A stretch of 64,000 nucleotides of DNA, taken from positions 74,639-138,638 of IMG/VR virus record IMGVR_UViG_3300017963_000200, one strand, 5' to 3'. The notes below the pieces were generated by a model. That model saw only the letters and a program-made list of their open reading frames with translations, had not been told where the DNA came from and made no database searches. Shown here piece after piece: positions 671-44,568 of this stretch. Position numbers and translations under genes: made by a program. Within the stretch, counting starts at the first letter, position 1, and the number at the start of each line of letters is the position of its first letter. The stretch is from a virus.

Positions 671-1114
671 ATGACCGAAAACGACAAAGACAACGACAAC
701 GTGCGCAACATCTACGAGAAGCCGGAGGAGGGTTCTCAAGTTCCGGAATCCGAGGATCCCGAAGATGGTGCCGAGGAAGTGTCCGAAGATGTCCCCAAGG
801 AGGATGCTCCGAAGCGAGATCCGCAACGTTTCATCCAACTGAACCGGTTGCACGCCGCCGAAGCCCAGCTGGCCGGCCTCAAGGTCCAGGAGGCCGAGAA
901 TCGGATCCGGCAGGCCAACCGCGAGCTGGAGCAGGCCCAGAAGGACCTCAAGCAGGCCCAGAAGGACCATCGGGAAGCCCAGATGGAGGGACAGCAGGCT
1001 GCGGACCGGATTCTCAAGGAGATGGCGCTCTCTTCTCAGAACGTCATCAATGTCGACAACAAAGTTGTGGTGCCCCCCAAGGGGCAGGAGTTCGTGGTCT
1101 TCTTGAATGACTGA
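671..1114 (+). CDS. Acidic coiled-coil protein (148 aa). The alternative start at 521 would overlap the preceding gene.
   Basis: ATG 671 preceded by CTGGAGGATGAG. The Asp/Glu-rich N-terminus and the heptad-like repeat QANRELEQAQKDLKQAQKD are read from the translation. The stop overlaps the next gene's ATG (ATGACTGA). Confidence 0.5.
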   Translation: MTENDKDNDNVRNIYEKPEEGSQVPESEDPEDGAEEVSEDVPKEDAPKRDPQRFIQLNRLHAAEAQLAGLKVQEAENRIRQANRELEQAQKDLKQAQKDHREAQMEGQQAADRILKEMALSSQNVINVDNKVVVPPKGQEFVVFLND

Positions 1115-4100: not shown

Positions 4101-4253
4101 GGGGCCAAGCCTCCTGGAGCAGCCGGAAAGCCTTCTGGAGGCATGGACGACGTTTCGAAGCCGCCGGGGAGCGCTCCTGGTGGGGGAGAGGCCTTGGACG
4201 AGGGAATCGAACGTCCGGCAGGCGGTGGTCTGCCGACTGGTGTCGGTGACTAG
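1107..4253 (+). CDS. Putative portal protein (608-aa host protein) interrupted in-frame by a 441-aa intein. It ends in a Gly/Pro/Ala-rich low-complexity tail.
   Basis: 1048-aa ORF. The position immediately upstream of a Mu F/gp7-like head morphogenesis gene, the absence of a Walker A motif (which argues against terminase), and the disordered C-terminal tail (QQAGAGGAKPPGGPGAGAKPPGAAGKPSGG) fit a portal. The portal call is inference from gene order and size. Confidence 0.55.
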   Translation: MTDDLKESFIPTRRAAANQFQPRLINADPSYHRRELAASVLPKGATLAMTPSRREGSGYFSGMPYGVTPYSGGGGGGGSSLYHMQRPYLPQVESPDRVQYPKSREEANEDWRLFHRVDPIFGCAIDMYAEMLVSDFDIVVGDEKSHEIRDTLEYMCQVTNLMDRLRYIVRDYLVFGEAIPHCFFDDDLGIWTYIGMHDPDYVEVIDAPIVNMDPILNFVPDESIRRLLSDGSPESREFRSRLPAEFVAKIMARQKIRLSPLNATFIPRKLHLHEVRGTSLASRMWRIFMVEDAVYNSTIATYRRHAAPVKVIKLGDPQTGWIPAPGAEVKLLEMLNRAEADPQAWIIYHYGINFEAWGTTDRAISIHQQHDVIEKVKLLALGLSKSFMTGEVTYACSLSRTPVRKGDSSYVGVEEIRKGDAVMDRFGKSRKVVDVLEYPAPDEMVKITLYGDRELTLTDYHELPVFARPHKCLCGCGEDLGDEKGTSQGRRQWRSFSPQHHKNTLRAGRDREWIDYKHGDAVIASFPSEHYPYQRLRADEVRMGDWLMIPRGFEVSATPSSEENLAKARLLGYYAAEGSTEFTVSDSGNKTTRFSFGRVDCAKEEFYVADVAELLESFGHLCTIQRSYKQPDSEVPSFTVYVPTTATPLSTYLEENGGKGSGTKRLSSEVMGWNLELKKELLKGMYRGDGYLFKNGNRLDVVYTTTSTQLMRQLEVILAQLGYSCYVHTSPERRDEKGYVHQECHYITCSGKQARPLAELVWSEVSAVWDEVDWTGFEKDNHQGERHEVFVDDEYIYLPVKSVETVQVDKKLNPYVYSLTVQETSSYTLNNVASFNSAKSGLQVFLRRLLSLRQFLENFWLYPKFFRPISEINEWFTAKPSEVHHRYRIKRTAQEIEEENMILMPTLKWRNKLDPGVDQDLLQAYAMLAKFGIQISDSTVAGAVGLDATEELEKSMKEFKSKREKIEQTLGKDLAREFLQQTQQAGAGGAKPPGGPGAGAKPPGAAGKPSGGMDDVSKPPGSAPGGGEALDEGIERPAGGGLPTGVGD
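2292..3614 (+). mobile_element. Intein with a LAGLIDADG homing endonuclease domain, inserted in the portal ORF.
   Basis: The N-terminal Cys at 2292 sits in the sequence TYA|CLSRTPV...GDAV. A block-B-like T-x-x-H motif (LTLTDYHELP) is present. There are two LAGLIDADG motifs (LLGYYAAEGS and LLKGMYRGDGYL). The C-terminal block YVYSLTVQETSSYTLNNVASFN is followed by the +1 Ser at 3615. The flanking extein sequence is continuous in frame. Confidence 0.75.
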
Positions 4254-5861: not shown

Positions 5862-6779
5862 ATGTCGTTCTGGAAAACAGCAAGTATCTCCGTCCTCGGC
5901 GTCCACGCGGATCACGGCTGGAATAAGGTCGCGACCGAAAAGTTCGCCTCGTTCTATATGGACGGCGGCGAGATTGACATCGAAGCCGCGCTCGACACCG
6001 TTGCCGACGCCTACCGGATATCTCGCGATCCAGATGATTATCTCCTGATTCCAACGCGGGCCAACTCGACGGATCGCCCGAACGAGAACATGGACGGTTG
6101 GCGCAGGGGAGAGCTGCTCCGGTTCGATCCTCGCATCGGACGCCGGGTCTATCAGACCTATCTCCTCAAGCCGCATTTCGTGAACCATAACGCCTCCAAC
6201 TTCGCCCTGTCTCGGGGAGTCATCCTCGACGCGCACTACAACGACGTCAATCCGGCCAACGACATGGTCAAGGAAGCGGTCTTCGAGGCGACCGGTGAGA
6301 TTCCCGATCGCGATGAGTTCGTCGAGACCTTGATCGCGATGGATACCACCAAGGATCCTCGCCTGGCGGAAGCGTACAAGAACGGTTCCGTCGACAAGTT
6401 CTCGATGGGTTGCGACGTGGAGAGCACCGAGTGCTCTGTCTGCGGCAAGACCGCGATGACCACCTTCCAGTTCTGCGATCACGTCCGCGCCAAGCTCTCG
6501 AAGCGTGCCTATCCCCTCGACGGTGGTGGCACGCGACGAGCTTTCGAGTGGTGCAACGGTACGATCTTCGCGGAGGAATCCGCCGTGGATGATCCTGCCG
6601 ACAAGGATGCCATCGTCCAGGAGGGTCTCTTGCAAGCGGTTGCGAGCGGTGCGCGCGTGTTGACGGCTTCCGAAGTCCGTCAGATCACGGCGTTCGTCGC
6701 GAAGCATCCGCGCGACATTCCGGAGCCCCTCGCTGCCTTGATCACATCGGCCCTCCAGAGGGCGTCAGGAGTGAACTGA
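5862..6779 (+). CDS. Hypothetical head-module protein (305 aa) with a C-x2-C ... C-x-H cluster.
   Basis: Long ORF between the head morphogenesis and scaffold genes. CSVCGKT...FCDHV suggests metal binding. No protease motif recognised. Confidence 0.5.
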   Translation: MSFWKTASISVLGVHADHGWNKVATEKFASFYMDGGEIDIEAALDTVADAYRISRDPDDYLLIPTRANSTDRPNENMDGWRRGELLRFDPRIGRRVYQTYLLKPHFVNHNASNFALSRGVILDAHYNDVNPANDMVKEAVFEATGEIPDRDEFVETLIAMDTTKDPRLAEAYKNGSVDKFSMGCDVESTECSVCGKTAMTTFQFCDHVRAKLSKRAYPLDGGGTRRAFEWCNGTIFAEESAVDDPADKDAIVQEGLLQAVASGARVLTASEVRQITAFVAKHPRDIPEPLAALITSALQRASGVN

Positions 6780-8602
6780 TGACGCAACATCGACTCCAGC
6801 TTCTCAACACCGTCAAGGAGCTTCACGAGGCCGGGACGGTCAAGCTTTCCGATGCCGACAAGGCCAGGATCGAGGCGGAGACCGCCGATCTGATCCAACG
6901 TTCGCTCTTGAACTCGAAGCTGGCGATGAAGGCTCCTCCGGGTTTTGACGCGCTGCTCGAAGAGCTGAAGAAGGCCGAGGCCGCCGATGCCGCCTTCGAG
7001 ACCGTGGTGAAGTTCTTGGATTCTCTCGAAGGCATGGAAGTTGAGTCCGAGGAAGAGGAAGAAGAGGAGGAATCCGAAGAGGAGGAATCCGAGGCGAAGA
7101 ATGGGGGGCCGGAGATGGGCGAGAAGAAGCCCGAACCTCCGAAGCCGAAAGAAGAAAAACCCTTCCCTCCGAAGCCGAAAGACGAGAAGAAGCCCGGCCC
7201 ACCCGAGGGCGGTCCGCCCAAATCCGGTCTCCCGAAGCCCGGTGAACCCAAGGAAGACGAGATGAAGGAAGCGCGGCAACAGCTCCTGCGCCGAGCCCAG
7301 GAGCAGGAGACCCCCGAAGGCGGCATCAGCGATCTCCAGGAGAAGAAGCGCGAGAAGGCCGAAGCGCCGTCCGCTGACGAAATGGGCGTCGGGGACATGA
7401 CGCCCGTCGCCAGAGCCGCGAAGATCAAGGTCGCGCTGACCAAGGATCGTAACCTCGTAGCCTCTCATCAGGATTTCGGTCCCGTGTTCTATGCGATGCC
7501 GGCCCCGGAAGTGAAGCGTGACGAGAACGCGCTGCGCCGGTTGGCCAACAAGGTCTTCGGGATCGCCCTCTACCAGGGCTTCAAGGAGGCCGCGCGCCTG
7601 TGCAAGGCGAAGCTGCTCATTGAAGCCGGGGTCGATGACGACGTCGTCACCGACTCCCAAGTGGAGGTGCCCCCGGCCACGCAGGGCATCACTGCCGATG
7701 AGGAGACCGATACGCGAGAGAAGCCAGAAGAAGGTGATTCCTCGGCGCTGCCGGGCATGGAGGTCGACACGCGCGAGAAGCCGCCGACCGTTTCCGACAC
7801 CAAGACCAAGATGATCACGAGCAAGCGCAAACGCATCGCGTTGGCGAGTGCTCGTCATCGCGGCAAGGATATTCTCGACGAGGCCGAGGGCGTCACCCAG
7901 ACGCACAAGCCCTCGAAGCCGTCCGGCGATACCACCGATGACGCCGAGTTCAACAGCCAGGAAACGCCTCCTGCGCCTGCCGGTGACGTGCTCGCCGACG
8001 CGGACAACGATATTCGGACCACTCAGGCGAACATGAGCGAGCTGTACAAGCACCGGCTGGAGAAACGCCTCGCCGCCGAGAAGGAGCAGTTCGTCCGGAA
8101 GTTCACGCGGGCGCTCAGGATCGCGGGTACCCGAATGCTGCTCAACCACGAAGAGCATCCGCTCAAGGTGGCAGCGGTCGATGTGCTCACCGGGGAGGAC
8201 ATCGAATTCAGCGACGGCGAGCGCTATACCGGCATGGATGTCGGGACGGCGGTCGAGTTGACCGAGCTGATCGCTTCCGAAGGTCATGAGAGCTTCATGA
8301 CCCGGCTGCTCTCCCGAGCTGCCGATCTGCTCGAAAAGGACGATCAGTATCTCGCCGATGCGGAGACCGATCTTCAGGATCAGGCTCCTGTCCCGGTGGG
8401 AGACGGTGGTCAAGCGACAGCGAGAAAGCGTTCCTCGCGGAATCGGCGTTCGGCGCGCGTGCGCCGGGAAGCCGCCGAGGGGAACTTCGGTAAGGAAAAC
8501 GGAGCACCTGTTTCCAGCTCCAAACAAGCTTCTGGCGGTATTCGTGACGCCCTCAGTGGAGGCACCCTGCTCGGTCGTAGGATCGGCAGGCTTCAGGGCT
8601 GA
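6779..8602 (+). CDS. Putative scaffolding protein (607 aa, highly acidic, poly-Glu and PPKPK(E/D)EK repeats).
   Basis: Contains EEEEEEEESEEEESE and the repeats KPEPPKPKEEKPFPPKPKDEKKPGPP. Predicted largely helical and disordered. The position immediately upstream of the capsid genes is typical of scaffolds. 1-nt overlap (TGATG) with the preceding gene. Confidence 0.5.
   Translation: MTQHRLQLLNTVKELHEAGTVKLSDADKARIEAETADLIQRSLLNSKLAMKAPPGFDALLEELKKAEAADAAFETVVKFLDSLEGMEVESEEEEEEEESEEEESEAKNGGPEMGEKKPEPPKPKEEKPFPPKPKDEKKPGPPEGGPPKSGLPKPGEPKEDEMKEARQQLLRRAQEQETPEGGISDLQEKKREKAEAPSADEMGVGDMTPVARAAKIKVALTKDRNLVASHQDFGPVFYAMPAPEVKRDENALRRLANKVFGIALYQGFKEAARLCKAKLLIEAGVDDDVVTDSQVEVPPATQGITADEETDTREKPEEGDSSALPGMEVDTREKPPTVSDTKTKMITSKRKRIALASARHRGKDILDEAEGVTQTHKPSKPSGDTTDDAEFNSQETPPAPAGDVLADADNDIRTTQANMSELYKHRLEKRLAAEKEQFVRKFTRALRIAGTRMLLNHEEHPLKVAAVDVLTGEDIEFSDGERYTGMDVGTAVELTELIASEGHESFMTRLLSRAADLLEKDDQYLADAETDLQDQAPVPVGDGGQATARKRSSRNRRSARVRREAAEGNFGKENGAPVSSSKQASGGIRDALSGGTLLGRRIGRLQG
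7136..7182. repeat. 17-nt direct repeat CCTCCGAAGCCGAAAGA occurring twice (7136-7152 and 7166-7182), encoding the PPKPK(E/D) repeats of the scaffold.
   Basis: Identical 17-mers 30 nt apart, read directly from the sequence. Confidence 0.6.
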
Positions 8603-8638: not shown

Positions 8639-9409
8639 ATGGCCTTCTCGCCGCGTATGGAAGCCTTCAGGGTTTCGAGCCGAGCAATCGGCATCGACCT
8701 GATGCGCTCCCAGTACACGCGGAACCTGGGCACCTACGTCGCCAACGCCGCGACCACCTTCCGCGCGGGGATGCTCGTGTCCCTCAACGCGAGTCAGGAG
8801 ATCGTGGTGTGCGACGGCACGACGCCTTTCGGTTTCGCGAAGTACACCAAGGCGCAGACGCTGTACGCAGCTGTGACTGCCGAGCAGATCCAGCTGAACG
8901 GCGTCATCGCCACCAACCTCGCCCACGGCAACCTCTGGACGCCGGGCGCAACCGGCGGCGTGCGCGTGACCGACATCACGGGTACGACCGTCTACACCGA
9001 GGGTGCCGGTAACGACTACACGGTCAACTATGTCAACGGACAGGTGACCCGCGTGGCGACCGGTACCATCGGCGACGGTGACTATGTACTGGTGGATTAC
9101 CAGTATCAGGTCACCGAGCAAGAGCTGAAGTTCGAGGGGCGCAACTTCTGGAACTTCATCGACGACGTCACCATTCAGGGCGACAAGATCACCGTGATCA
9201 ACGACTGGTCGTTCATCTGGACGACCCAGTACGATCCGGCCCAGACCTACGCCGTGAACGACGTCCTGAACGCCGGTATGTCGGGTGCCTCCAAGGCCGG
9301 TCTCGTGACCAAGGGCGGTGGTGGTGCCTACATCGGCAGGGTCTTCCAGGTCCCGACAGCGGACGATCCCTTCCTGGGCATCCGTTACGTCGGCGGCATG
9401 GTCAGCTAG
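8639..9409 (+). CDS. Hypothetical beta-rich structural protein (256 aa), possibly a head decoration or accessory protein.
   Basis: RBS GGAGGATAGAG. Positioned between the scaffold and the putative capsid gene. No motif recognised. Confidence 0.45.
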   Translation: MAFSPRMEAFRVSSRAIGIDLMRSQYTRNLGTYVANAATTFRAGMLVSLNASQEIVVCDGTTPFGFAKYTKAQTLYAAVTAEQIQLNGVIATNLAHGNLWTPGATGGVRVTDITGTTVYTEGAGNDYTVNYVNGQVTRVATGTIGDGDYVLVDYQYQVTEQELKFEGRNFWNFIDDVTIQGDKITVINDWSFIWTTQYDPAQTYAVNDVLNAGMSGASKAGLVTKGGGGAYIGRVFQVPTADDPFLGIRYVGGMVS

Positions 9410-9424
9410 GAAAGGAGGAGGACG

Positions 9425-10735
9425 ATGAAGAATCCGTACAAGCGAATCGCCAAGAATCGTCGCCCCGTTTCCTCGCGGACCGCCCGCAGGACCTCGGAGC
9501 GTCAGCGTCCGGAACGTCCGGAGCGCAAGCCTGCCGCGCAGCCGCGTGACCGTCGCCAGTCGGAGCGCCGCCCCGAGGGGAGCGACGACAAGCGTCAGCG
9601 CTTGGCCGCTCGTCCGCGTGAGCGGTTCGGGTCGCGGAGGGACGAGGGTCTCTTCGAGGGAGGCGGCTCCTTCAACCCGCAGCGGTACGACCATCCGTCG
9701 AGCCGTCGGGCGACCGCGAGCCAGACCGACCGGCGCATGTTCGACAAGCGCGGCGAGGTCAACGCCTACGACAAGCGGGACGCGATGGTGCAGGTCAACG
9801 AGCTGCTGAACGAGATCACCAAGAAGAACGCCAAGGCGCTCTCGTTCTATCGCCCGGACACCGAGTCGAGCATCTCCAAGGAGGCCCGGCGCGACATCCT
9901 CGGCGCAGCGCTCACCGACCCGACCGGCCAGGGCTTCCACATCGTGGGCCAGGAGCTGGCTCTGCCGATCAAGGCGATCCTCGACTACGAGGGCTTCAGC
10001 CGGAAGATCTACCGGGTGCGGAAGCTGGCTCAGGCCGAGCTGTTCCGTCTCCCGGTCGACATCCGGTCGACCGCCTGGGTCGTGGGTCAGGACGGCCAGT
10101 CGCCCGAGTCGCGGATCAAAACCAAGTGGATCACGCCACCCGAGTGGAAGGTCACTTCGTTCCCGAGCATCGACATCCAGGACATCTACCAGATGAACTT
10201 CGATGTGCTCGACCGCGCTCAGGACACGGCCCGCCAGGAGATCGAGCTGCAAGAGGACAAGGCCGGCATCAGCCTGATCGACGAGGCTGCGCAGACCGAG
10301 AACGCCGTGACGACCTTCGCCACGCTGGGCATCGCCGCGTTCGAGGACGTGCGGTTCCAGGTCGAGCGGCACCGCCTCATGGTCGAGAACTTCCTGATCT
10401 CCCGCGCCGAGCTGTCCGACATCGTGAAGACGATGTCCGCAGCCGTGGATCCGGTCACCGAGCGTGAGCTGATCCTGGCCGGGTACATCGGGAACATCCT
10501 GAACGCCCAGATCCTGACCGCCGCCGGTACCGGCGTCGAGGAAGTCATCCCTCCGGGGACCTTCTACGCGACGACCGGCGCGGACTACATGGGCGAGATG
10601 GGTGTGCGGATCGAGCTGTTCAGCGAGCCCTACAACAAGTACTCCCACCAGGAGACGGTGAAGGGCTGGGCGTTCATCGAGATGATCGGTTTCGCCATCG
10701 CCAACAGCCGGTCGTGCGCGAAGGGCCAGAAGTAG
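9425..10735 (+). CDS. Putative major capsid protein (436 aa) with an unusual Arg/Ser-rich N-terminal extension of about 120 aa.
   Basis: Strong RBS AAAGGAGGAGG. Downstream of the scaffold. The C-terminal ~320 aa has a size and alpha+beta pattern compatible with an HK97-fold capsid protein. The capsid call is inference from position. Confidence 0.45.
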   Translation: MKNPYKRIAKNRRPVSSRTARRTSERQRPERPERKPAAQPRDRRQSERRPEGSDDKRQRLAARPRERFGSRRDEGLFEGGGSFNPQRYDHPSSRRATASQTDRRMFDKRGEVNAYDKRDAMVQVNELLNEITKKNAKALSFYRPDTESSISKEARRDILGAALTDPTGQGFHIVGQELALPIKAILDYEGFSRKIYRVRKLAQAELFRLPVDIRSTAWVVGQDGQSPESRIKTKWITPPEWKVTSFPSIDIQDIYQMNFDVLDRAQDTARQEIELQEDKAGISLIDEAAQTENAVTTFATLGIAAFEDVRFQVERHRLMVENFLISRAELSDIVKTMSAAVDPVTERELILAGYIGNILNAQILTAAGTGVEEVIPPGTFYATTGADYMGEMGVRIELFSEPYNKYSHQETVKGWAFIEMIGFAIANSRSCAKGQK

Positions 10736-10756
10736 CGAGAGCTGCTTGATGGGTGC

Positions 10757-10814
10757 GCCGGGAGGCGCTGAAGGTCTCCCGGCCCATCCTGGGCCATAAC
10801 CCCGCGAGAGCGGG
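10757..10814 (+). promoter_or_regulatory. Two GC-rich stem-loops immediately after the putative capsid gene: GCCGGGAG-N11-CTCCCGGC at 10757-10783 and CCCGC-GAGA-GCGGG at 10801-10814. Possible transcript-stabilising or attenuating elements.
   Basis: Perfect 8-bp and 5-bp inverted repeats read from the sequence. Neither has a downstream U-run, so they are not classical intrinsic terminators. Confidence 0.35.
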
Positions 10815-11010
10815 AGGTGGGGTAACACCCTGGCACACCACGAGGAATCTGGATGTGGGTAATCGAGTTCCCGTCCTGGGGCCGGACGATACCGTTCTGT
10901 CCTATACCCACCCTGCCAGGGCAAGGAAACTGGTCAAGAACGGAAAGGCGGTCGTCGCCAACGGACGACCTTTCATCATTCGGTTAAACCGAGATCCCAG
11001 GGAGGACAAA

Positions 11011-11679
11011 ATGCCGAAGCCCGTACCAATCATTACGAATTTCACCGAGTACTTCAGGGTCGAGCGGGACGTGTACGTCCAGAATATGAGCAACACCCAG
11101 GTGTCGCTCCAGTTCGAGACGTTTCCCGGTCGGATCGAGAGCGTGCTGCTCCCGAAGACCAAGAACCCGCTCAACTTGACGCAGCTCATACCTTTCAGCG
11201 CGATCAAGCAGTCGGTCGATCTGCGGAAGATGGTCAATCGTCGTCCGCCGGTTCTGCGGCTGCTGGAGGAGAACGAGTACATCGAGTTCTACCAGAACCT
11301 TGCCAAGCGCCGGGGCGTTTCGCCCGAAGAGGTGATGGATGAGGCGCACCAGTCGCAGTCCGATCTCCAGAACAAGCGTGCTTTCACCAATCCGACCAGG
11401 AAGGCCAGGAAGACCATCGAGGAGGAGGCTGAGGAGCGCAAGAACGAGCCGATGGATCCGGACGAAAAGGTCACGGCTCGGGTCGTGGGTCTCTGTGCCA
11501 GCGTCGGGGACGACCTCGACGAGAAAGATCGCATGGGTGCTCGCGAAATGCTCGATGAGCTGCGCGAGATGGATCTGACCACGGCGGACCTGGAGTACCT
11601 GCTCGGCCACGGCTACTACAAGTCGGTCAAGAAGTACGCGCAGAAGGAGCTGGAGGAACGCGTCAACGAGCCTGCATAA
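11011..11679 (+). CDS. Hypothetical head or head-completion protein (222 aa), acidic at the C-terminus.
   Basis: ATG 11011 preceded by CCAGGGAGGACAAA. The longer ORF from GTG 10753 is rejected because that stretch is hairpin-rich and lacks an RBS. Confidence 0.5.
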   Translation: MPKPVPIITNFTEYFRVERDVYVQNMSNTQVSLQFETFPGRIESVLLPKTKNPLNLTQLIPFSAIKQSVDLRKMVNRRPPVLRLLEENEYIEFYQNLAKRRGVSPEEVMDEAHQSQSDLQNKRAFTNPTRKARKTIEEEAEERKNEPMDPDEKVTARVVGLCASVGDDLDEKDRMGAREMLDELREMDLTTADLEYLLGHGYYKSVKKYAQKELEERVNEPA

Positions 11680-11755
11680 TCGCCTTCCATCTTTAATTCT
11701 CCGACATCAACCCGTGATATTGTATCTTGAGGTACCACTACGTCTGAGGTGACTC

Positions 11756-12217
11756 ATGGGGCAGGCCAGAGAGACGATTCGAGATATCATTGTTCCCGCC
11801 GGGGGCAAGATTCGTGTCTGGGATGCTCCGATCAGTATGCCTCTCAAGGATCTCTACATCTGGGCCAGTACGAGAGGATCGAAGTTGTCGCTTGCGCTCG
11901 ATTGGGAGGTCTTTTACGGTGGCGGCTGGACGGGAAGTCCCTTCGGTGAGAACGACCGCGAAGGTGTCGCGCCGAGTGCGCACAAAGGGGGTGTCAGTCA
12001 AGGCACCGGTTCGTTCGCGGCAGCGGCTGAGCTTGCCACGATGTTCTATTCCGATCTGGATCATCTGCCGGGGAATCGGATAGCACCTACGCCACCACAA
12101 CCGGTTCATCGAGCCCCGGGTTTTCCTATTGTCGTCGAACTGGATAATACCCTTGGGGGTACTCCTGTAAAGATCACGATTATCTTCCTGACTCAAGTGG
12201 TCACGGATCGCTACTAG
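11756..12217 (+). CDS. Hypothetical protein (153 aa), first of a tandem paralog pair.
   Basis: RBS GAGGTGA. About 60% identical to the next gene product. Conserved blocks are WDAPISM, DLYIWA, ALDWEVFYGGGWTG, GFPIVVELDN and FLTQVVTDRY. Confidence 0.6.
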   Translation: MGQARETIRDIIVPAGGKIRVWDAPISMPLKDLYIWASTRGSKLSLALDWEVFYGGGWTGSPFGENDREGVAPSAHKGGVSQGTGSFAAAAELATMFYSDLDHLPGNRIAPTPPQPVHRAPGFPIVVELDNTLGGTPVKITIIFLTQVVTDRY

Positions 12218-12225
12218 GAGGAAGT

Positions 12226-12672
12226 ATGGGACAGGCCAGGGAGACGGTTCGAGAGGTTGTTGTTCCAGCCGGGACTACGATCCGTATCTGGGATGCCCCG
12301 ATCAGTATGCAGATCAAGGATCTCTACATCTGGGCGACCACGCGTGGCGTTCAGCTGGCGGGTGCCCTCGACTGGGAAGTCTTCTACGGAGGGGGTTGGA
12401 CCGGGCAGCCCTTCGACGAGAACGATTCCGGCAGCACACATCAAGGCGGCGTCAGTCAAGGCAGCGGCACGTTCGCTGGCGGTGCGGAACTCGTCAGCAT
12501 GTTCCATTCTGACACGGATCATATGCCTGCGAATCGAGTGGAACCAACACCGCCTCGACCGGCAGTACGCGCAGCAGGTTTTCCCATTGTTGTCGAGCTG
12601 GACAATGGCGGTCTCGTGGATATTTCTATCGTGATCACCTTTTTGACTCAGGTGGTCACTGACCGTTACTAG
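12226..12672 (+). CDS. Hypothetical protein (148 aa), second of the tandem paralog pair.
   Basis: RBS AGGAGGAAG. Paralog of 11756..12217. Confidence 0.6.
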   Translation: MGQARETVREVVVPAGTTIRIWDAPISMQIKDLYIWATTRGVQLAGALDWEVFYGGGWTGQPFDENDSGSTHQGGVSQGSGTFAGGAELVSMFHSDTDHMPANRVEPTPPRPAVRAAGFPIVVELDNGGLVDISIVITFLTQVVTDRY

Positions 12673-12681
12673 GGAGGAGTC

Positions 12682-13002
12682 ATGGAAAATTTCATAGAGA
12701 TTCTCAAGGAATACGGTCCCTACGTAGGTCTCGCGGTCGTTGTTGCGGGCATCGTTCAGGCGCTCAAGCTGAGCTTCAAGAAATTCTTCCAGAAGAACCA
12801 GATCGGGATGCGGATTCTGCCATTCATTCCCATCGTGCTCGGCCTGATCGGGGGTCTGCTGCTGCCGCTCGAAACCGTCAAGGAGCAGCTGCTGACCGGT
12901 GGAGCGCTCGGGACCGTCTCGTCTCTCATCTACAAGATGGTGACTCGGACATTCGCCTCGAAGGCCAAGCTGGAAGAGAAGGCCAACGGACGGGAGGAGT
13001 AG
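12682..13002 (+). CDS. Small membrane protein (106 aa, 2-3 predicted TM helices, charged C-terminus). Holin-like.
   Basis: RBS GGGAGGAG. Hydrophobic segments GLAVVVAGIVQALKL, ILPFIPIVLGLIGGLLLPL and GGALGTVSSLIY, followed by a Lys/Glu-rich tail. Confidence 0.4.
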   Translation: MENFIEILKEYGPYVGLAVVVAGIVQALKLSFKKFFQKNQIGMRILPFIPIVLGLIGGLLLPLETVKEQLLTGGALGTVSSLIYKMVTRTFASKAKLEEKANGREE

Positions 13003-13272
13003 GTGCGGCGCGGTATTCCCGATGAAGGTCTGAAGCGGATTGCTTCGCAGCTGGATAAAGCTGCGCAAGCTCCAGATTTTCTGACCGACATGGGACGTAC
13101 TGTGCAGAGTCTTGGAGGCTTCGAGCAGGGCTACGACGAATGGATCGAGGCGGTAACCTCTCAGCTCCAAGCTGCGGGCCTCCAGGTCGGTGATTACGGC
13201 TCCGAGCTGGCCTACATGAGGGAGAGCAACTACACGCCGGAGGAAGCTGTACAGGAGCTTCTGGGAGGTTGA
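13003..13272 (+). CDS. Small helical protein (89 aa). Shares the N-terminal motif RGI(P/S)xxGLKRIAS with the next gene product.
   Basis: GTG start directly after the TAG stop of the previous gene. RBS GGGAGGAG. Confidence 0.45.
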   Translation: MRRGIPDEGLKRIASQLDKAAQAPDFLTDMGRTVQSLGGFEQGYDEWIEAVTSQLQAAGLQVGDYGSELAYMRESNYTPEEAVQELLGG

Positions 13273-13273
13273 G

Positions 13274-13558
13274 ATGAAGCGTGGGATTTCGGAAGATGGG
13301 TTGAAGAGGATCGCCTCGAAAATGGAACGTCAAGGAGTGTACGCAACTCCCGAGGTGGAAGCGGAACAGCTCTACGACAAAGTGCTTCAGTTCGTCTCAG
13401 AAGAATTGTCGCACAGCTACACCGATCCGGGGATGATCGCGGATGAGCTGACTAAGCTGATGGCCAATTTCGGAAGGGACATAGAACCTTTGGCCGGGGC
13501 GGCGGGAGAAATGGATCCCGAGGAAGCCCGAAAGTACTGGGAGGAGAAGGGTTATTGA
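13274..13558 (+). CDS. Small helical protein (94 aa). Paralogous N-terminus to 13003..13272, divergent remainder.
   Basis: RBS GGAGGTTGAG. N-terminus MKRGISEDGLKRIASK compared with MRRGIPDEGLKRIASQ. Confidence 0.5.
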   Translation: MKRGISEDGLKRIASKMERQGVYATPEVEAEQLYDKVLQFVSEELSHSYTDPGMIADELTKLMANFGRDIEPLAGAAGEMDPEEARKYWEEKGY

Positions 13559-13565
13559 TCCCAAG

Positions 13566-13928
13566 ATGTCCTGGTTGAAACGAGCCTGGGGATGGATGAA
13601 GCGGCACTGGAAAGCGGTCGCTGCTACGGTGGGGATTATCCTCGCCGCCATCGCCGGAATCGTCATTGCCAGCAATGTTCGAAAACGGAAGAAGCAAGAG
13701 CACAAGATCAAGGTGCTCAAGGCCGAGAAGGAAGTCGCCAAGCTCGAAGGCAAGCGTGAAGTCATTCGGCGGCAAGAAAATGCCGTCGAGAAGGACATCG
13801 AGGAGATCGACAAGAAGATCGAGGCCAAGAACGAAGAGATCAAGGTCGCTCGCAAGGAGATTGATCGGCTCTCTTCGAAGGAAAAGCTTAAAGAGTTCAA
13901 GAATTTGGGATATGGAGGCGACGAGTGA
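13566..13928 (+). CDS. Membrane-anchored coiled-coil protein (120 aa, N-terminal TM helix then Lys/Glu-rich heptads). Resembles an i-spanin or Rz-like protein.
   Basis: TM segment AVAATVGIILAAIAGIVIA followed by the charged coiled-coil KVLKAEKEVAKLEGKREVIRRQENAVEKDIEEIDKKIEAKNEEIK. Confidence 0.4.
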   Translation: MSWLKRAWGWMKRHWKAVAATVGIILAAIAGIVIASNVRKRKKQEHKIKVLKAEKEVAKLEGKREVIRRQENAVEKDIEEIDKKIEAKNEEIKVARKEIDRLSSKEKLKEFKNLGYGGDE

Positions 13929-14356
13929 GGTTCGTGGCTTCCATCCTGGTCGTTTTGATGGTTATGCTGCCGCGCGTGGCGCTCAGCGAGGTGCCGGAAA
14001 CCATCGAGCTGGAGCATGACGGCCATCCAGGCTACTGGTTCGCGGAGGAGACCGCGACCAAGATGCTCAAGGACCTCAAGGAGCTGAAGCTGCTGCGCGA
14101 GAAGCTGGAGCTGATCGACACGAAACTCGAACTGCGAGACCACCACTTGGAGCTGATCCGGGAGGATCTGCGCATCACCGAGAACATCGGGGAGAAGTGG
14201 CGGCTCGCATTCGAAGAGCAGGCTCAGCTCACTCAGATGTGCGAGGAGGAGAAAGACGCCTGGTACCGGCACCCGGCCCTCTGGGGCGCGGTGGGCTTCG
14301 TGGTGGGCGTTGGAGTTACGGTAGGAATCGGCTACGCCCTGGCGGGCGCGAGATAA
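13925..14356 (+). CDS. Secreted or bitopic coiled-coil protein (143 aa). Signal-peptide-like N-terminus, central coiled-coil, Gly-zipper C-terminal TM helix.
   Basis: GTG start with RBS GGAGGCGACGA. N-terminus MRFVASILVVLMVMLPRVALSE. C-terminus ALWGAVGFVVGVGVTVGIGYALAGA. Confidence 0.4.
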   Translation: MRFVASILVVLMVMLPRVALSEVPETIELEHDGHPGYWFAEETATKMLKDLKELKLLREKLELIDTKLELRDHHLELIREDLRITENIGEKWRLAFEEQAQLTQMCEEEKDAWYRHPALWGAVGFVVGVGVTVGIGYALAGAR

Positions 14357-14366
14357 GGAGAGCCCG

Positions 14367-14774
14367 ATGTCAGAGGAAGCAACGGTCACTGCCAAGATCA
14401 CCTATCCCTCGGTTCCCGGTGGGCCGAATGTCGCGCCGGTCTTCGGGTCTCCGATCATCAATCCGGCTTCGGCGACGGGACCGGTGTTGGAGTTCAACGA
14501 GAAAGTCGAGGGCAACTACATCATCCCGCCTTCCGGGACCGTGGACGTCGACTTCCAGACGCTGTCCAAGGCGAGCTTCGTCTACATCGGTACCGACCAG
14601 CCGATTCGCGTTTTCTTCAACGGTGGCGCGGAGTACATCGACCTGGAGGGTAGCCCGGCAACGGACGAGTCGGGAGGCTGGATCGCGATGTTCAAGACAG
14701 ACATCACCGCCGTTCAGATCATCTCGACAGCTCCCATCAACGCAAAGGTCGTTGTCATCCTGCTGGGAGATTGA
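14367..14774 (+). CDS. Hypothetical beta-rich protein (135 aa), neck/head-tail module.
   Basis: RBS AAGGAGAG. Confidence 0.5.
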   Translation: MSEEATVTAKITYPSVPGGPNVAPVFGSPIINPASATGPVLEFNEKVEGNYIIPPSGTVDVDFQTLSKASFVYIGTDQPIRVFFNGGAEYIDLEGSPATDESGGWIAMFKTDITAVQIISTAPINAKVVVILLGD

Positions 14775-14775
14775 G

Positions 14776-15144
14776 ATGCGGCTCGAAGGCATCAGGACGA
14801 TCAACTTCTACCGGCTGGCCCAGCAGTGGGCCGTCGACTTCGACCGTCGCCAGCGCATCATGGACAGCATCATGTGGCATCTCGGCGACTACATCCAGGC
14901 CGATCGTCCCGGGAGGGCCGTCTGGAACAACCTGATGGAGAACAGCCAAGGTCCGGATGTCTATGTCTTCGACGGCAGGGAGTTGCTCGACGAGAACTTC
15001 GACGAGAGCGACGAGCTGATCGAGGGGCTCTGGGAAGTCAAGGAGGACCTCGAACGTCAGCTCGGCTTCGACACACGCCTGCTCGATGACTGGGCGGTCG
15101 AGTTCCGCAACCCGAATCCGGAGGAACGTGAGCTAGCAGCATGA
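14776..15144 (+). CDS. Hypothetical acidic protein (122 aa).
   Basis: ATG 14776 with RBS GGGAGATTGAG. The longer ORF from 14197 is an Arg-rich read-through artefact. Confidence 0.5.
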   Translation: MRLEGIRTINFYRLAQQWAVDFDRRQRIMDSIMWHLGDYIQADRPGRAVWNNLMENSQGPDVYVFDGRELLDENFDESDELIEGLWEVKEDLERQLGFDTRLLDDWAVEFRNPNPEERELAA

Positions 15145-16064
15145 TCATCCAGCCTGGCATGGAGGAACCGTCTGTTGCGGCCATGATCGAGCTGGCTCGG
15201 ACGAACTCGAAGCGCCGGGTCGACATCGAGCTGCGCAATGCCGCCGGAGAACTCGTCGACATCAATGCCAGCACACCGGCCAGTGGCGATCCCGAGGGTG
15301 AACTTGACCTCGAAGTGACCGACCTGGGGGGCAATTCACTCTTCATCGAGGCTTATTATCCCCCGAGTGACGCGCCGAGTGCGACGGACCGTATCAAGCG
15401 GCCTTCTGCCGGGAAGTACTACATCACCTGGGGTGAAGAAGACGACGAGACCGAGACGGCTCAGCGGTTGCTGTTCAACTGGCACAGCCGGGAGGACGCC
15501 AGCTCCGAGGATGTCTACCGGACTCAGGTCCTGGACATTGTTTCGCCGCGCGTGCTCTCGCTGCTGCCGTCTCTTCGGGTGATGATCGACAAGGTCATCA
15601 AGCCGAATCTGCCGGAGCAGTACTGTTTCCTGGGCTACACAGACGGGATACTGCTCCTGTTCTTGCGTCTCGGGTTGAATATGATCAACGAGGCCCAGCC
15701 GTACCCGACCTGGGTATCGCTGGAGTATTTCCCCATCGAGATGTTCTCGAACATCTTGATCAAAGCCGCGATCTACCAGGGCATCACGAGCCAGTTGCTC
15801 TTCAGCATCGATACGGACGTGCCCCAGTACAGCGATTCGGGACATTCCTTCGTACTTCAGCACGCCACTCCGTTTGCCGGCTATCTGAGCCACTTGAAGT
15901 CGGAGTTGGACATGGCGATTCCGAACTTCAAGCGCCACTTCGTGAACAGCGGCACGATGAGCGCCGAGGTGAGAATGGACATGGCCTTTTCCATGCTCCT
16001 TGCTTCTGCGCCTTACGGCAGCTTGTTCCGCAACCTCTGGCCTGGCGGCGTCTCGGGGGTCTAA
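15141..16064 (+). CDS. Hypothetical head-tail joining protein (307 aa).
   Basis: ATGA overlap with the upstream gene. Consistent codon usage. Confidence 0.5.
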   Translation: MIIQPGMEEPSVAAMIELARTNSKRRVDIELRNAAGELVDINASTPASGDPEGELDLEVTDLGGNSLFIEAYYPPSDAPSATDRIKRPSAGKYYITWGEEDDETETAQRLLFNWHSREDASSEDVYRTQVLDIVSPRVLSLLPSLRVMIDKVIKPNLPEQYCFLGYTDGILLLFLRLGLNMINEAQPYPTWVSLEYFPIEMFSNILIKAAIYQGITSQLLFSIDTDVPQYSDSGHSFVLQHATPFAGYLSHLKSELDMAIPNFKRHFVNSGTMSAEVRMDMAFSMLLASAPYGSLFRNLWPGGVSGV

Positions 16065-16238
16065 ATGCCGGTCAAGGAAATCAAGATCGACCTCTTCGAC
16101 GGTAGTCGGGAGGGGAACAAGAAGTTCGCCAACTTGCTGGATCCGGGGAAGTGGCAGCAACTGGTGTCCGAGTACGATGAGGGACGCGGTGAGCAGTCTT
16201 TGGATGATCTTCTTGCGGAGCTGATTGAGAGTCGATGA
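16065..16238 (+). CDS. Small acidic protein (57 aa). Not in the supplied ORF track because it is under 60 aa.
   Basis: ATG at 16065 directly after the TAA of the upstream gene. The TGA overlaps the ATG of the next gene (ATGA), exactly filling the gap. Translated by hand: MPVKEIKIDLFDGSREGNKKFANLLDPGKWQQLVSEYDEGRGEQSLDDLLAELIESR. Confidence 0.5.
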   Translation: MPVKEIKIDLFDGSREGNKKFANLLDPGKWQQLVSEYDEGRGEQSLDDLLAELIESR

Positions 16239-17335
16239 ACAACGGTGGGTGTGAAGAAGCCGGCAACGGCAACGGGACTGGAAATGGCAACGACGGGGAT
16301 GCCGTCTGCGGCCAGGACACGGCGACCAAGGGTTGCAAGGTTCCCGGTGCCCACATGGCGGTGGGCTACTGGGGGCGCGATATTCATGCTCAAATCTTTG
16401 CCAACCAGGAACACGCCCGCCAACGCGCGCTCCTGACGGAGCAGATCCTGGCAGGTTCGATTCGCGCGGCTCTCTGGAGGGGTGTCACCGAAGGACCGCA
16501 GTGCGCTTGTTACAAGGAGAGCAACCAGCAGGCCGACAGGAAGTGCGGGGCCTGTCACGGCGTCGGCATCGTGCCTGGCTACGTGAAGTTCGGTTACGAG
16601 ACTTTCTGGCTCTCCGGAAGCGACCCAGACGCCACGCTGACGGACGTACACCTCACCCAAGGGTGGAAGTCGTCCAAGGTCATTCTCGCGGACGGAGCGG
16701 TCACTGGTGTCATCGAGAGCGTCGACATGTCGTTCAATCGGGACGCTTTCGGATCGGCCTGGTCGGCGCAGGCGCTCTACTTCTTGCCGGAGGAGTCCGA
16801 GTCCTCGGTGGTGGTCGAATACTCGTTGGACGGCGGAGACACCTGGGCATCCCTGGATACCTTGTGCTCGGTGAACCCGACCAGCGGCACCATTCGGTTT
16901 CGGGCGACTTTGAACCGGGATTCAGTGGACGTGATCTCTCCACAGTTCGAGATCATCAGGGCTCGCTTCGCGCGGCTGCCGCTCTCGCATCCGTCTGCGG
17001 GTCAGTACCGGATGGGTCCTTGGATCCTGATCATGCGCGAACCACCCAAAACACGGGCTCGCAAGTACGAATACGGTGATATCCCGGTCGAGGATGGCCT
17101 CTCGTTCTGGACCGCCGGACTCGCTTTCTTCGATCCGACAATCGAGATGGGTAGCCAGGATGAGTTGCTCAAAGGTCCGTTGGCCTTCATCGAAGTCTTG
17201 GATGGCGCTCGGATAGGTTCGCGCTATGTGACGACATCTTGGCAGAACTCTGATCCGTTCGGATACATCCTGGTTTCGCAGACCTTCGAGATTCGCATCG
17301 CGGATCCGGCAGGCCCATTTCATTTGGTGTGGTGA
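16235..17335 (+). CDS. Hypothetical structural protein (366 aa) with an N-terminal Gly/Asn-rich region and a Cys cluster (CACYKES...CGACHG).
   Basis: ORF with coupling overlaps on both sides. Confidence 0.5.
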   Translation: MNNGGCEEAGNGNGTGNGNDGDAVCGQDTATKGCKVPGAHMAVGYWGRDIHAQIFANQEHARQRALLTEQILAGSIRAALWRGVTEGPQCACYKESNQQADRKCGACHGVGIVPGYVKFGYETFWLSGSDPDATLTDVHLTQGWKSSKVILADGAVTGVIESVDMSFNRDAFGSAWSAQALYFLPEESESSVVVEYSLDGGDTWASLDTLCSVNPTSGTIRFRATLNRDSVDVISPQFEIIRARFARLPLSHPSAGQYRMGPWILIMREPPKTRARKYEYGDIPVEDGLSFWTAGLAFFDPTIEMGSQDELLKGPLAFIEVLDGARIGSRYVTTSWQNSDPFGYILVSQTFEIRIADPAGPFHLVW

Positions 17336-21100: not shown

Positions 21101-21547
21101 ATGCCAGTTCCGAACACGACGATTCGTAGTAGCCACGCGGTATCTCTCCGCGCCGCCGGTACTACCATCGGCCAGATCCAGACCTGGGCACCGAACCAGT
21201 CTCGGACCGTCACGCCAGCCTACGAGCTTCGGGCGGAGACCTCCGGGGAGGTCATCGAGAACGTGCCCGGCAACGTCACCGGCCTCACCATCCAGGTATC
21301 CCGCTATGACCTGTTCGCGTCGAAGATGGAGCAGGTCTGGGGTACCCCGAAAGCGCTCTGGATGCTCACCGACCAGAACAACAAGATCGAGGTCGAGGAG
21401 AAGTGGAGCAACCCGGACGGCACTAGCGAGAAGTTCATCTACTTCGACTGCTGGTTCAGCCAGCTGGGGCGCAACCTCCAGGCGCAGGGCGACCGGATCG
21501 TGATGGTCAACGCGACGTTGAACTACGCTCGTGTGCGGCCCGTTTAA
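21101..21547 (+). CDS. Tail tube protein (148 aa), first of two paralogs.
   Basis: Strong RBS AAAGGGAGGAGG. Located immediately after the sheath gene. Paralog of 21561..22169. Confidence 0.65.
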   Translation: MPVPNTTIRSSHAVSLRAAGTTIGQIQTWAPNQSRTVTPAYELRAETSGEVIENVPGNVTGLTIQVSRYDLFASKMEQVWGTPKALWMLTDQNNKIEVEEKWSNPDGTSEKFIYFDCWFSQLGRNLQAQGDRIVMVNATLNYARVRPV

Positions 21548-21560
21548 GCCGTGAGATGAG

Positions 21561-22169
21561 ATGCCCGTACCCGCCACGCAGATCCGTACCTCTCATGCGA
21601 TCTCGATCAAGGCCGGGAACCAGATAATCGGTCACATCCAATCGTGGGCTCCCAATCAGGCGCGGGCGGTGCAACCGTTCTACGAGATCAGCGCTGTCGG
21701 CACCGGGGAGCCTTTCGAAAACGTTCCCGGCATCGCGACGGGCCTGACGATTCAGATTGGCCGGTACGATCTTTTCACCAACAAGATGGAGGAGGTGTGG
21801 GGGACGCCGAAACCGTTTTGGATGTTGACGGACCAACACAATCCCATCGACATCGAGGAGAAGTGGATTCGCTTCAAGAGCGACAAGGATCCTTCCATCC
21901 CGTGGCTCGACAAGAAGGCGGGAGATCCTTTCTCGTTCGGCAAGAAGCTCAACAAGAAGGTCGAACAGGCCACGGGAGCCATCTTGAGCGCCGCTGGGGT
22001 CAAGGATGATCTGGAGGACGTTCAGGTGGGTGCCGAGTACTACGTCGAGAAGTTCTGGTATTCCGGGTGCTGGTTCAGCCAGCTGGGTCGGAATCTCCAG
22101 GCGCAAGGTGATCGAATCGTGATGGTGCACGCCACGTTGAACTATACCAAAGTACGAATGATTTCGTAA
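21561..22169 (+). CDS. Tail tube protein paralog (202 aa) carrying an internal insertion of about 55 aa.
   Basis: N- and C-terminal regions about 65% identical to 21101..21547 (MPVP..TIR.SHA; ..CWFSQLGRNLQAQGDRIVMV.ATLNY..VR). Extra segment KWIRFKSDKDPSIPWLDKK...YYVEKFWYSG. Confidence 0.65.
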   Translation: MPVPATQIRTSHAISIKAGNQIIGHIQSWAPNQARAVQPFYEISAVGTGEPFENVPGIATGLTIQIGRYDLFTNKMEEVWGTPKPFWMLTDQHNPIDIEEKWIRFKSDKDPSIPWLDKKAGDPFSFGKKLNKKVEQATGAILSAAGVKDDLEDVQVGAEYYVEKFWYSGCWFSQLGRNLQAQGDRIVMVHATLNYTKVRMIS

Positions 22170-43695: not shown

Positions 43696-44568
43696 ATGAT
43701 AATTAGAGATAAAGAACGAGAAGTTCGAACCTGCACTAAGTGTATGGAAGTAAAGTCTTTTTCTGAGTTTTCTTACTCAAGAACTGGTTTTGCTAATCGA
43801 AAGAGTATGTGTAAGAATTGCATGTATGAACATCGTCGCGAATACATGAAGAATTACAAGAAAAAGAAACTCAAGACTTTTGTTGAGGTTACATCTGGAG
43901 TTAAAACATGTACGCATTGCAAAGTAGAGAAACCGGTAACTGAATTTAGAAAACTTGTTACAGTTAAGGACGGTCGTCAGAGTTGGTGTATCCGATGTAC
44001 TCAGAAGCAGAGTCATGAGCGGGATAAACGGTTGAACTTCCCCCCTCGCAAGGAAGGGGTAAAAAAGTGTTCTCGATGTGAACAAGTCAAGTCTGTACGA
44101 GAATTTAGTCCGCATAAATACCATAGGGATGGTTTAGCTTCTTGCTGTAAAAAATGTGATGGACAACGTAGTGTATGTCGCAACAGACGTGATCCGCAGT
44201 CGAGATTGGCTTCAACTTTACGGAGTCGTTTGTTGGTAGCGTTGCAGTATCGTGATGGGACGGGCTATAAAGGAGGATCTGCCGTAGCAGATTTAGGGTG
44301 TACAATTCCAGAATTGAAGAAATATTTGGAAGATCAGTTTTATCCGCATCCCCATACTGGGGAATTGATGAACTGGGATAATTGGTCTAACTCGGGATGG
44401 CAGATCGATCATATAAAGCCTCTTTCTTCTTTTGATTTATTGGATCGGGCACAATTTTTGGAGGCATCTCGGTATACAAATCTACGACCTTTATGGTTGG
44501 TAGATCATATTAGGAAAACAAAGCGGGAGCAGAAAGCTCTGAAACTTTCTGAGGAGAAAAAATCATGA
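43696..44568 (+). CDS. HNH homing endonuclease (290 aa) with three N-terminal Cys4 zinc-ribbon repeats, encoded in an AT-rich island.
   Basis: Three repeats of C-x2-C-x3-K-S/P-x3-EF-x8-12-C-x2-C. The C-terminus GWQIDHIKP...NLRPLWLVDHIRK is a canonical HNH motif. GC content is about 40% against about 60% in the flanks. Confidence 0.7.
   Translation: MIIRDKEREVRTCTKCMEVKSFSEFSYSRTGFANRKSMCKNCMYEHRREYMKNYKKKKLKTFVEVTSGVKTCTHCKVEKPVTEFRKLVTVKDGRQSWCIRCTQKQSHERDKRLNFPPRKEGVKKCSRCEQVKSVREFSPHKYHRDGLASCCKKCDGQRSVCRNRRDPQSRLASTLRSRLLVALQYRDGTGYKGGSAVADLGCTIPELKKYLEDQFYPHPHTGELMNWDNWSNSGWQIDHIKPLSSFDLLDRAQFLEASRYTNLRPLWLVDHIRKTKREQKALKLSEEKKS

Follow-up and report, generated by a model that had tools for sequence, protein, structure and literature searches.

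The injected internal proteins of bacteriophage T4 are a proven source of anti-restriction factors, and the capsid-targeting sequence of this phage is MKTYQEFIAE. To our knowledge, the leader-based recognition of internal proteins has so far been described in the T-even phages only, where Ip1, Ip2, Ip3 and the polymorphic ip loci are small proteins, or sets of them, with only a short N-terminal leader in common. The Dar system of phage P1 (DarA, DarB, Hdf, Ddr, and Ulx) is reportedly made late, incorporated during capsid morphogenesis, and injected, with an N-terminal region that is sufficient for targeting, according to the work of Piya and colleagues from 2017. Iyer and colleagues are likewise said to have proposed, in 2017, that the anti-defense domains of polyvalent proteins, such as ArdA, are delivered with the incoming DNA. 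T4 internal proteins (Ips) inhibit GmrSD (PMC12373910, PMC3012670). The O operon of phage P2 runs in the order L, X, Y (holin), K (endolysin), lysA, lysB, lysC (spanins), R, S, and the lytic cassettes of Bacillus PBSX and SPbeta (XepA or YomS, XhlA/BhlA, XhlB/BhlB, and XlyA/BlyA) are also among the closest known systems to the locus described here. This locus is a compact cluster of seven plus-strand open reading frames (ORFs) within positions 11756-14356 of a 64,000-nucleotide stretch of DNA (the window), which is part of the ~188-kb genome (188,449-bp contig) of an uncultured phage. The cluster had been noted from the letters alone (the sequence-only reading), and all seven ORFs are present where that reading had placed them. 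They appear to be three unrelated gene sets that are interleaved and cotranscribed in one late structural operon. Two of the genes begin with the same 16-residue leader, which is probably an address label for loading anti-defense proteins into the virus particle. The reading as a whole, which combines a jelly-roll protein pair, an embedded lysis-type membrane module, and a capsid-targeting leader on injected proteins, seems to us evenly poised between right and wrong.

Three proteins of the window carry the leader:

13003..13272, plus strand: leader-tagged acidic protein 1, 89 amino acids (aa), isoelectric point (pI) 4.3; leader in codons 1-16 (13003-13050), 24.2 bits with the leader hidden Markov model (HMM)
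13274..13558, plus strand: leader-tagged acidic protein 2, 94 aa, pI 4.6; leader in codons 1-16 (13274-13321), HMM 21.8 bits
14776..15144, plus strand: leader-tagged acidic protein 3, 122 aa, pI 4.3; degenerate leader MRLEGIRTINFYRLAQ, HMM 16.5-16.7 bits

The two ~90-aa proteins of the cluster had been described as sharing an N-terminal leader only, and their similarity is indeed confined to residues 1-19 (11 of 19 identical, E 7e-7), with none elsewhere. The same reading had counted them as a gene duplication. We rejected this, as the pair is one conserved leader on unrelated cargo. The third copy lies beyond the cluster and had gone unnoticed there. Across the clade, the leader has the consensus M-[KR]-x-G-I-[SPT]-D-x-G-[LMF]-x-R-[ILV]-A and was found at the extreme N terminus, always from residue 1, of 41 distinct ORFs in ~15 related phages, an occurrence far beyond chance. 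The products are 67 to 451 aa long and have a pI of 4.1 to 5.2 in 40 of the 41 cases, the exception being L008:20551-20832 (pI 6.6). Beyond residue 24, they fall into 33 unrelated cargo clusters. A locus holds between 0 and 9 leader genes, which occupy variable slots, mostly between conserved structural genes. Matches of a strict degenerate DNA pattern for the leader in IMG/VR were confined to this clade, and the leader pattern was found in metagenomes on ~20 further clade contigs; about ten other metagenome matches were discarded as false positives, since they fell on an internal Met of a conserved, non-acidic bacterial family (MSAGIADEGMRRLARP...). A second hotspot was observed at L032:1-3719 on the minus strand (IMGVR_UViG_3300017963_000003, 166-175 kb), where five tandem leader genes for proteins of 97, 451, 129, 227, and >332 aa lie downstream of genes for 1000-aa and 498-aa proteins without a family match.

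Some of the cargo is recognizable. In one related locus (L017:15742-16509), the leader (residues 1-22) is followed by a complete ArdA domain (PF07275, E 6e-34; phrog_2059, E 9e-41), and residue 26 of the fusion aligns with residue 4 of the solved ArdA structure 2W82. A second leader-ArdA fusion, 50% identical to the first, is encoded on an independent metagenomic contig (L043). Further cargo comprises a GNAT acetyltransferase, DUF5661 (three members), and a PcrA/UvrD Tudor domain. The occurrence of such unrelated domains behind one leader points to modular recombination rather than divergence. None of the three window cargo proteins had a Pfam match, ArdA PF07275 included, and ArdA was found only in L017 and L043. 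Neither of the two ~90-aa genes has an ortholog in the 28 related loci of our synteny sample, which were retrieved from IMG/VR with the capsid protein; the cargo of 13003-13272 has no homolog in these loci and no Pfam, PHROG, or NCBIfam match. The cargo of 14776-15144 is orthologous to that of L024:15046-15402. A single-sequence AlphaFold2 (AF2) model of 13274-13558 (pLDDT 68) has five helices, with leader residues 7-19 helical, and a fold search with this model returned nothing better than E 1.

It might be argued that the leader targets nothing and is simply all that is still conserved in a family of fast-diverging paralogs, given that small phage accessory genes diverge quickly and that the GC content at third codon positions (GC3) of the leader genes of the window is 0.61-0.64, against 0.71-0.91 in their neighbors. 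We regard this as very improbable, because unrelated, independently evolved domains (ArdA, GNAT, DUF5661, and Tudor) are fused behind the leader, and because the peptide is kept through synonymous change and always at residue 1. In the window, the 13003 and 13274 copies have synonymous differences in 7 of their 16 leader codons, which indicates selection on the peptide, not on the DNA.

A leader on unrelated proteins with a fast turnover, together with a prohead protease and anti-restriction cargo, matches the description of the T-even internal proteins. The leader is thus comparable to that of Ip1, Ip2, and Ip3, and the likeness extends to gene sets that are hypervariable between relatives and to the anti-restriction cargo itself, here ArdA in two relatives. 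It is most likely a capsid-targeting signal of the T4 internal-protein kind on injected anti-defense effectors, whose packaging and injection we infer. The leader would dock its cargo to the prohead core during assembly, and the docked cargo would be packaged and then injected with the DNA to disarm host defenses. An ArdA gene among late structural genes would make sense, we reason, only if its product is delivered with the DNA.

Several results weigh against this reading. The leader shows no similarity to the capsid-targeting sequence of T4. Leader residues 5-7 read I-x-D/E, but conservation does not extend to the Glu, and among the leader proteins of the clade the leader is not followed by any consistent cleavage site of the Glu type, so that the leader would be a functional analogue of the T4 sequence at best and not a member of its family. 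The two ~90-aa cargo proteins of the window have no recognizable domain or fold. Finally, the five L032 leader genes lie ~100 kb from the head module of their 192-kb genome, which means that the linkage to structural genes is not absolute. Further differences from the T-even phages are that the host clade is unrelated and has an Rctr197k/PaBG-like capsid, that the cargo is acidic in all but one protein, and that the genes are scattered between structural genes.

The same observations could be taken to mean that the leader docks a partner other than the prohead, such as a phage chaperone, a host target like RNA polymerase or a protease adaptor, or a holin-channel export route, and that the cargo is not injected but acts within the producing cell or outside it. 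The predicted short leader helix has a hydrophobic face (L10, I13, A14, and M17) that is typical of docking motifs, and such a partner would suit a leader without T4-like sequence or a clear cleavage site, leader genes that are interleaved with the membrane module in the window and in several relatives, and the five L032 genes far from the head genes. However, ArdA acts on incoming DNA, so that a late, undelivered ArdA would be useless, as its known function implies. The leader has no hydrophobic core and no Tat or Sec features. Many leader genes stand among structural genes far from the membrane module, and this module is absent from the L017 locus, which carries four leader genes. We therefore consider docking to a non-prohead partner unlikely and retain the capsid-targeting reading.

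Two other delivery systems bear comparison with a capsid-targeting leader. Like the P1 Dar system, the clade would package candidate anti-restriction proteins into the head; unlike P1, which has large proteins and an ordered hierarchy of incorporation, it has one short leader on dozens of small cargos. Unlike the polyvalent proteins, which are giant and multidomain, the domains of the clade are separate small proteins under one short leader.

The second gene set is a membrane trio that surrounds the two leader genes of the cluster:

12682..13002, plus strand: holin-like membrane protein, 106 aa, with three hydrophobic segments and a charged C terminus
13566..13928, plus strand: N-terminally anchored coiled-coil membrane protein, 120 aa, with an architecture like that of an inner-membrane spanin (i-spanin)
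13925..14356, plus strand: protein with signal peptide, coiled coil, and C-terminal transmembrane (TM) segment, 143 aa; its start overlaps the previous stop by 4 nucleotides (nt)

The lysis function and the membrane topology of these proteins are inferred, the latter from hydropathy and from conservation in 10 to 11 orthologs. The Kyte-Doolittle scan gave hydrophobic segments at residues 14-32 and 45-63 of the 106-aa protein; a third, at ~70-87, is weaker, conserved, and under the cut-off of the scan, and was read off the alignment, followed by the charged C terminus. The protein is thus small, with two to three TM domains (TMDs) and a charged tail, as expected of a holin, and it matched phrog_1299 ("holin") at E 3e-4, as did 6 of 10 orthologs, the best at 5.5e-5. 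These results agree with its earlier description as holin-like. An exhaustive HMMER search of 1.84e9 representative proteins recovered 21 clusters of the family, none with a usable name.

In the 120-aa protein, a single TM segment (17-35) precedes a helical region in which 59% of the residues are charged. This is the layout of an i-spanin, an N-terminal TMD followed by a coiled coil that is predicted to be periplasmic, and it recalls Rz of lambda. Related loci hold 15 orthologous ORFs, and the C-terminal ...F..LGY is kept in ten aligned orthologs (F, L, and Y invariant; G in nine of ten). In the 143-aa protein, a signal-like segment at residues 3-21 (ALS|E) and a C-terminal TM segment at 122-140 give a layout like that of the unimolecular spanin (u-spanin) gp11 of phage T1. 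Among its 11 orthologs, most have small-residue (AxA-type) sites like those of signal peptidase I, a lipobox Cys is found in none, and an EHxGxxGxWF motif is conserved after the signal. The Gly-zipper reported for this protein in the sequence-only reading is strong in the window copy; the orthologs retain only G124, G134, and a small-xxx-small pattern. The window copy had no PHROG, Pfam, or NCBIfam match.

Distant holin-like homologs also lie apart from head genes, in two other phage-like contigs. In L033, a distant holin-like gene follows a gene for an 817-aa tail-fiber-like protein, and the next gene encodes a 148-aa coiled-coil protein with a C-terminal TM segment; in L034, one lies among non-structural genes and is followed by a gene for a beta-rich protein and then one for a 96-aa TM and coiled-coil protein. 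It thus seems that a coiled-coil membrane partner travels with the holin-like gene, independently of head genes. None of the three membrane genes is present at this locus in L017, which shows that they are no obligatory part of the neck. The portability of the module and its absence from this locus in L017 make a membrane function of its own, such as lysis, likelier than a structural role in the neck.

In our view, the trio is most likely a module of an ordinary lysis type, embedded much as in P2; its partner pair, which lacks a lipoprotein, is atypical. The module would time and carry out lysis from within the operon, with the endolysin encoded elsewhere, and the coiled-coil pair, with no lipoprotein, would stand in for a spanin or partner the holin. 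As in the P2 O operon, holin- and spanin-type membrane genes lie between head-completion and tail-completion genes. This precedent removes the earlier objection that membrane proteins are unexpected in such a place. Unlike the cluster of the window, P2 has an adjacent endolysin and a lipoprotein outer-membrane spanin (o-spanin), lysC. The lambda Rz/Rz1 and T1 gp11 systems differ in their lipoproteins, as the locus has no lipobox Cys in the 11 orthologs and no embedded lipoprotein ORF; it thus lacks the anchor in the outer membrane by which o- and u-spanins are defined. Both coiled-coil proteins are consequently predicted to be anchored in the inner membrane with their domains in the periplasm. 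The pair may still work with the holin, even though it lacks what defines o-spanins and u-spanins.

A number of results count against a lysis module. The phrog_1299 E-value of the 106-aa protein is modest, and this protein had no Pfam or NCBIfam match. In a tblastn search of GenBank phages, neither the 106-aa nor the 143-aa protein had a match. The 120-aa protein matched the Rz-like spanin PHROGs 312, 214, and 739 at E 6e-4 to 5e-2, which is the level of coiled-coil noise also seen for unrelated families; NCBIfam likewise gave coiled-coil noise only for all proteins of the cluster. Neither the cluster, nor 34 mid-size proteins of the window, nor the 10 kb beyond either window end yielded an endolysin domain, and a candidate endolysin encoded upstream of the holin-like gene of L034 was dropped after it gave no sequence match in PDB. 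A lipobox scan of all plus-strand frames in 11700-15200 yielded no o-spanin ORF. Two lipobox matches on the minus strand were antisense artifacts, which leaves no hidden o-spanin there.

The lack of an adjacent endolysin and of an o-spanin lipobox would be natural if the trio were not lytic at all, serving instead to anchor head or neck assembly at the inner membrane, in superinfection exclusion, or in lysis-inhibition signaling. Two coiled-coil proteins with a predicted anchor in the inner membrane provide no classical bridge to the outer membrane, the holin-like family is unusually conserved for a holin (59% mean column identity), and the position between capsid and neck genes is kept in ~20 phages. 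Nevertheless, the match to the holin PHROG is reproducible among the orthologs, the module moves into non-head contexts (L033 and L034) and is missing from the L017 locus, and superinfection-exclusion genes are normally variable morons rather than conserved genes of a late operon. A non-lytic trio is, in our view, a rather unlikely alternative that still deserves weight, and we continue to prefer a lysis-type module.

The third gene set opens the cluster:

11756..12217, plus strand: jelly-roll protein, paralog 1, 153 aa, conserved directly upstream of the holin-like gene in ~20 relatives
12226..12672, plus strand: jelly-roll protein, paralog 2, 148 aa

As the sequence-only reading had it, these ~150-aa proteins are a tandem pair (68% identical, BLASTP E 2e-78), and both end in FLTQVVTDRY. 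Among 5.8e9 protein clusters, only 32 belong to the family, none of them annotated, and the pair had no Pfam, PHROG, or NCBIfam match. An AF2 model on the family alignment (pLDDT 77.6, pTM 0.73) has eight strands in a single jelly-roll beta-sandwich, and a Foldseek comparison with viral models agrees with this fold. A cryptic lysozyme, amidase, or peptidase fold had been suspected; the fold searches, including that of the Foldseek viral models, gave no lytic-enzyme fold, and an enzymatic role is unlikely. The proteins are probably virion accessory or decoration proteins or XepA/YomS-like companions of the lysis genes.

The paralogs duplicated long ago and have been kept under purifying selection (dS 1.3, dN/dS 0.15). 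In a neighbor-joining tree, the two copies of the window group together, as do those of L024 and those of L022, which suggests three independent tandem duplications. The two successive duplications and rapid evolution once read from the cluster therefore cannot be upheld: the first is an old duplication under constraint, and the second pair is no duplication.

The fold of the paralogs also bears on the proposal of a single lysis or membrane-targeting cassette that spans the cluster, with the paralogs as cryptic endolysin and the leader proteins as duplicated lysis regulators or antiholins. A holin-like protein, an i-spanin-like architecture, and the lack of a recognizable endolysin in the cluster stand from that proposal; the cryptic lytic paralogs do not. 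A jelly-roll fold without similarity to lytic enzymes, leader proteins with no common sequence past the leader, ArdA and GNAT cargo unrelated to lysis, and leader genes that vary from 0 to 9 copies and also lie far from holin-like genes (L008:16888-21196 and the L032 cluster) make a single cassette improbable.

The synteny of the related loci separates the conserved from the variable genes. In ~20 of the 28 loci, the genes follow the same order: capsid, RRXRR-domain protein, ~150-aa protein, holin-like protein, N-anchored coiled-coil protein, signal/coiled-coil/TM protein, 135-aa protein, and 307-aa protein. Five of the seven cluster genes are thus conserved in place in ~20 relatives, and the variable ones are the two leader genes only, whose slot between the holin-like and coiled-coil genes is empty in some relatives and holds other genes in others. 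The idea that the whole cluster is a cargo insertion, raised in the sequence-only reading, is ruled out by this conserved order and by the confinement of the variability to the two leader genes. Neighboring cluster genes overlap by up to 4 nt or are separated by up to 9 nt, and good Shine-Dalgarno sequences precede several of the starts. On the plus strand of 9000-17000, we found no promoter-like or terminator-like site, the counts on both strands being at or below the shuffle means. The tight packing and the lack of such sites fit a single long structural transcript.

The conserved block ends with a gene outside the noted cluster:

14367..14774, plus strand: beta-rich protein, 135 aa

This protein, aligned with 14 orthologs, one of them from L036, has 16 orthologous ORFs in related loci, always behind the membrane genes, and a weak Fn3-like match only. 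Small beta-rich proteins with a common I-x-V-x-F-[DN]-G-G-like motif were also seen near the holin-like module at L033:8754-9071 and L034:4054-4542. Homology between the 135-aa protein and these two was rejected, as the hhalign E-values (0.019 and 0.23) were not significant.

The structural setting given to the cluster earlier is borne out, with portal, prohead protease, and capsid genes upstream and baseplate and tail-tube genes, including Baseplate_J and a tail-tube initiator, downstream, followed by a replication module:

1107-4253, plus strand: portal, 1048 aa, phrog_16240
5862..6779, plus strand: prohead maturation protease, phrog_18299 ("head maturation protease"), E 5e-34, kept in relatives; a capsid-targeting leader would rely on this enzyme
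9425..10735, plus strand: major capsid protein, phrog_2522, E 4e-58

A 607-aa scaffold-like protein (6779-8602) and a 256-aa protein (8639-9409) are also encoded upstream of the cluster. The sizeable genes of the window are all on the plus strand, and its GC content is ~59%. The closest deposited genome is that of Virus Rctr197k, from a methane-oxidizing enrichment culture (58% capsid-protein identity). A host search through GTDB genomes returned only two contigs of metagenome-assembled genomes (MAGs), from an Archaeoglobales and a Flavobacteriaceae bin, both uninformative. The clade member L007/L039 (QMZE01000009.1) is a 17.8-kb contig deposited within an "Archaeoglobales archaeon" MAG; this placement looks like a binning artifact and not like a sign of an archaeal host, because the replication genes of the window phage are of bacterial type (DnaB, DnaG, and DnaC-like).

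Several neighboring genes have features of their own. The portal gene contains an intein with a LAGLIDADG homing endonuclease (PF14528, E 2e-12), and portal residues ~537-835 had a weak Intein_splicing match. In the prohead protease, an internal segment looks by eye like the leader core DGLKRIAS; it reads VQEGLLQAVAS in the window (~6600-6650, residues ~250-262) and IQEGLLRIAS in L028:47-955. An I/V-Q-E/D motif precedes this segment, whose leader HMM score (~0.7 bits) is not significant. The capsid protein begins with a ~100-residue extension rich in Arg, Glu, and Pro (residues 1-108, 9425-9750), which starts with NPY[KR]RI[SA]KNRRPV across the clade and is presumably a propeptide cut off by the protease. 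A link between the leader and the capsid N terminus NPYKRIAK was discarded, the conserved capsid part being NPY[KR] and not RIA. Directly after the capsid gene, 10753-11679 (308 aa) encodes an N-terminal RRXRR/IscB PLMP-like domain (PF14239, E 2e-8; NCBIfam guided_IscB, positions 3-49, E 5e-7), an odd domain for a head module that is kept at the same position in all relatives. Downstream, 21101-21547 and 21561-22169 form a second tandem paralog pair (66% identity), both matching phrog_985 ("virion structural protein").

Base composition varies along the window. The jelly-roll paralogs and the two leader genes (11756-13558) have a GC3 of 0.58-0.64, compared with 0.71-0.91 in the surrounding structural genes, and the bin at 12-14 kb has the highest GC skew of the window (0.138). 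In the tail/baseplate region, the ORF at 43696-44568 (290 aa) has a GC3 of 0.35, compared with 0.7-0.85 in its neighbors. It looks like a recent foreign insertion and may be one of the endonuclease matches of the pooled PHROG scan.

Taken to its full extent, the proposal would be that this clade of uncultured jumbo phages has evolved, independently of T4, a capsid-targeting leader of its own, which loads a polymorphic arsenal of at least 33 cargo families (ArdA, GNAT, and acidic orphans) for co-injection, and that the lipobox-less coiled-coil pair may be a new spanin substitute. We advance this tentatively, as it falls somewhat short of an even chance. The membrane module is of lesser interest, although, having no lipoprotein spanin partner, it would serve to test how else the outer membrane may be disrupted. 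If the proposal is true, the leader explains the small variable genes sprinkled across the structural operon and is a second, unrelated one, marking dozens of cargo families in a globally distributed clade of uncultured phages. Leader-directed packaging of anti-defense proteins would then be a general strategy of phages with prohead proteases, and the 16-residue leader would provide a sequence handle for mining injected anti-defense proteins, mostly orphans, in metagenomes.

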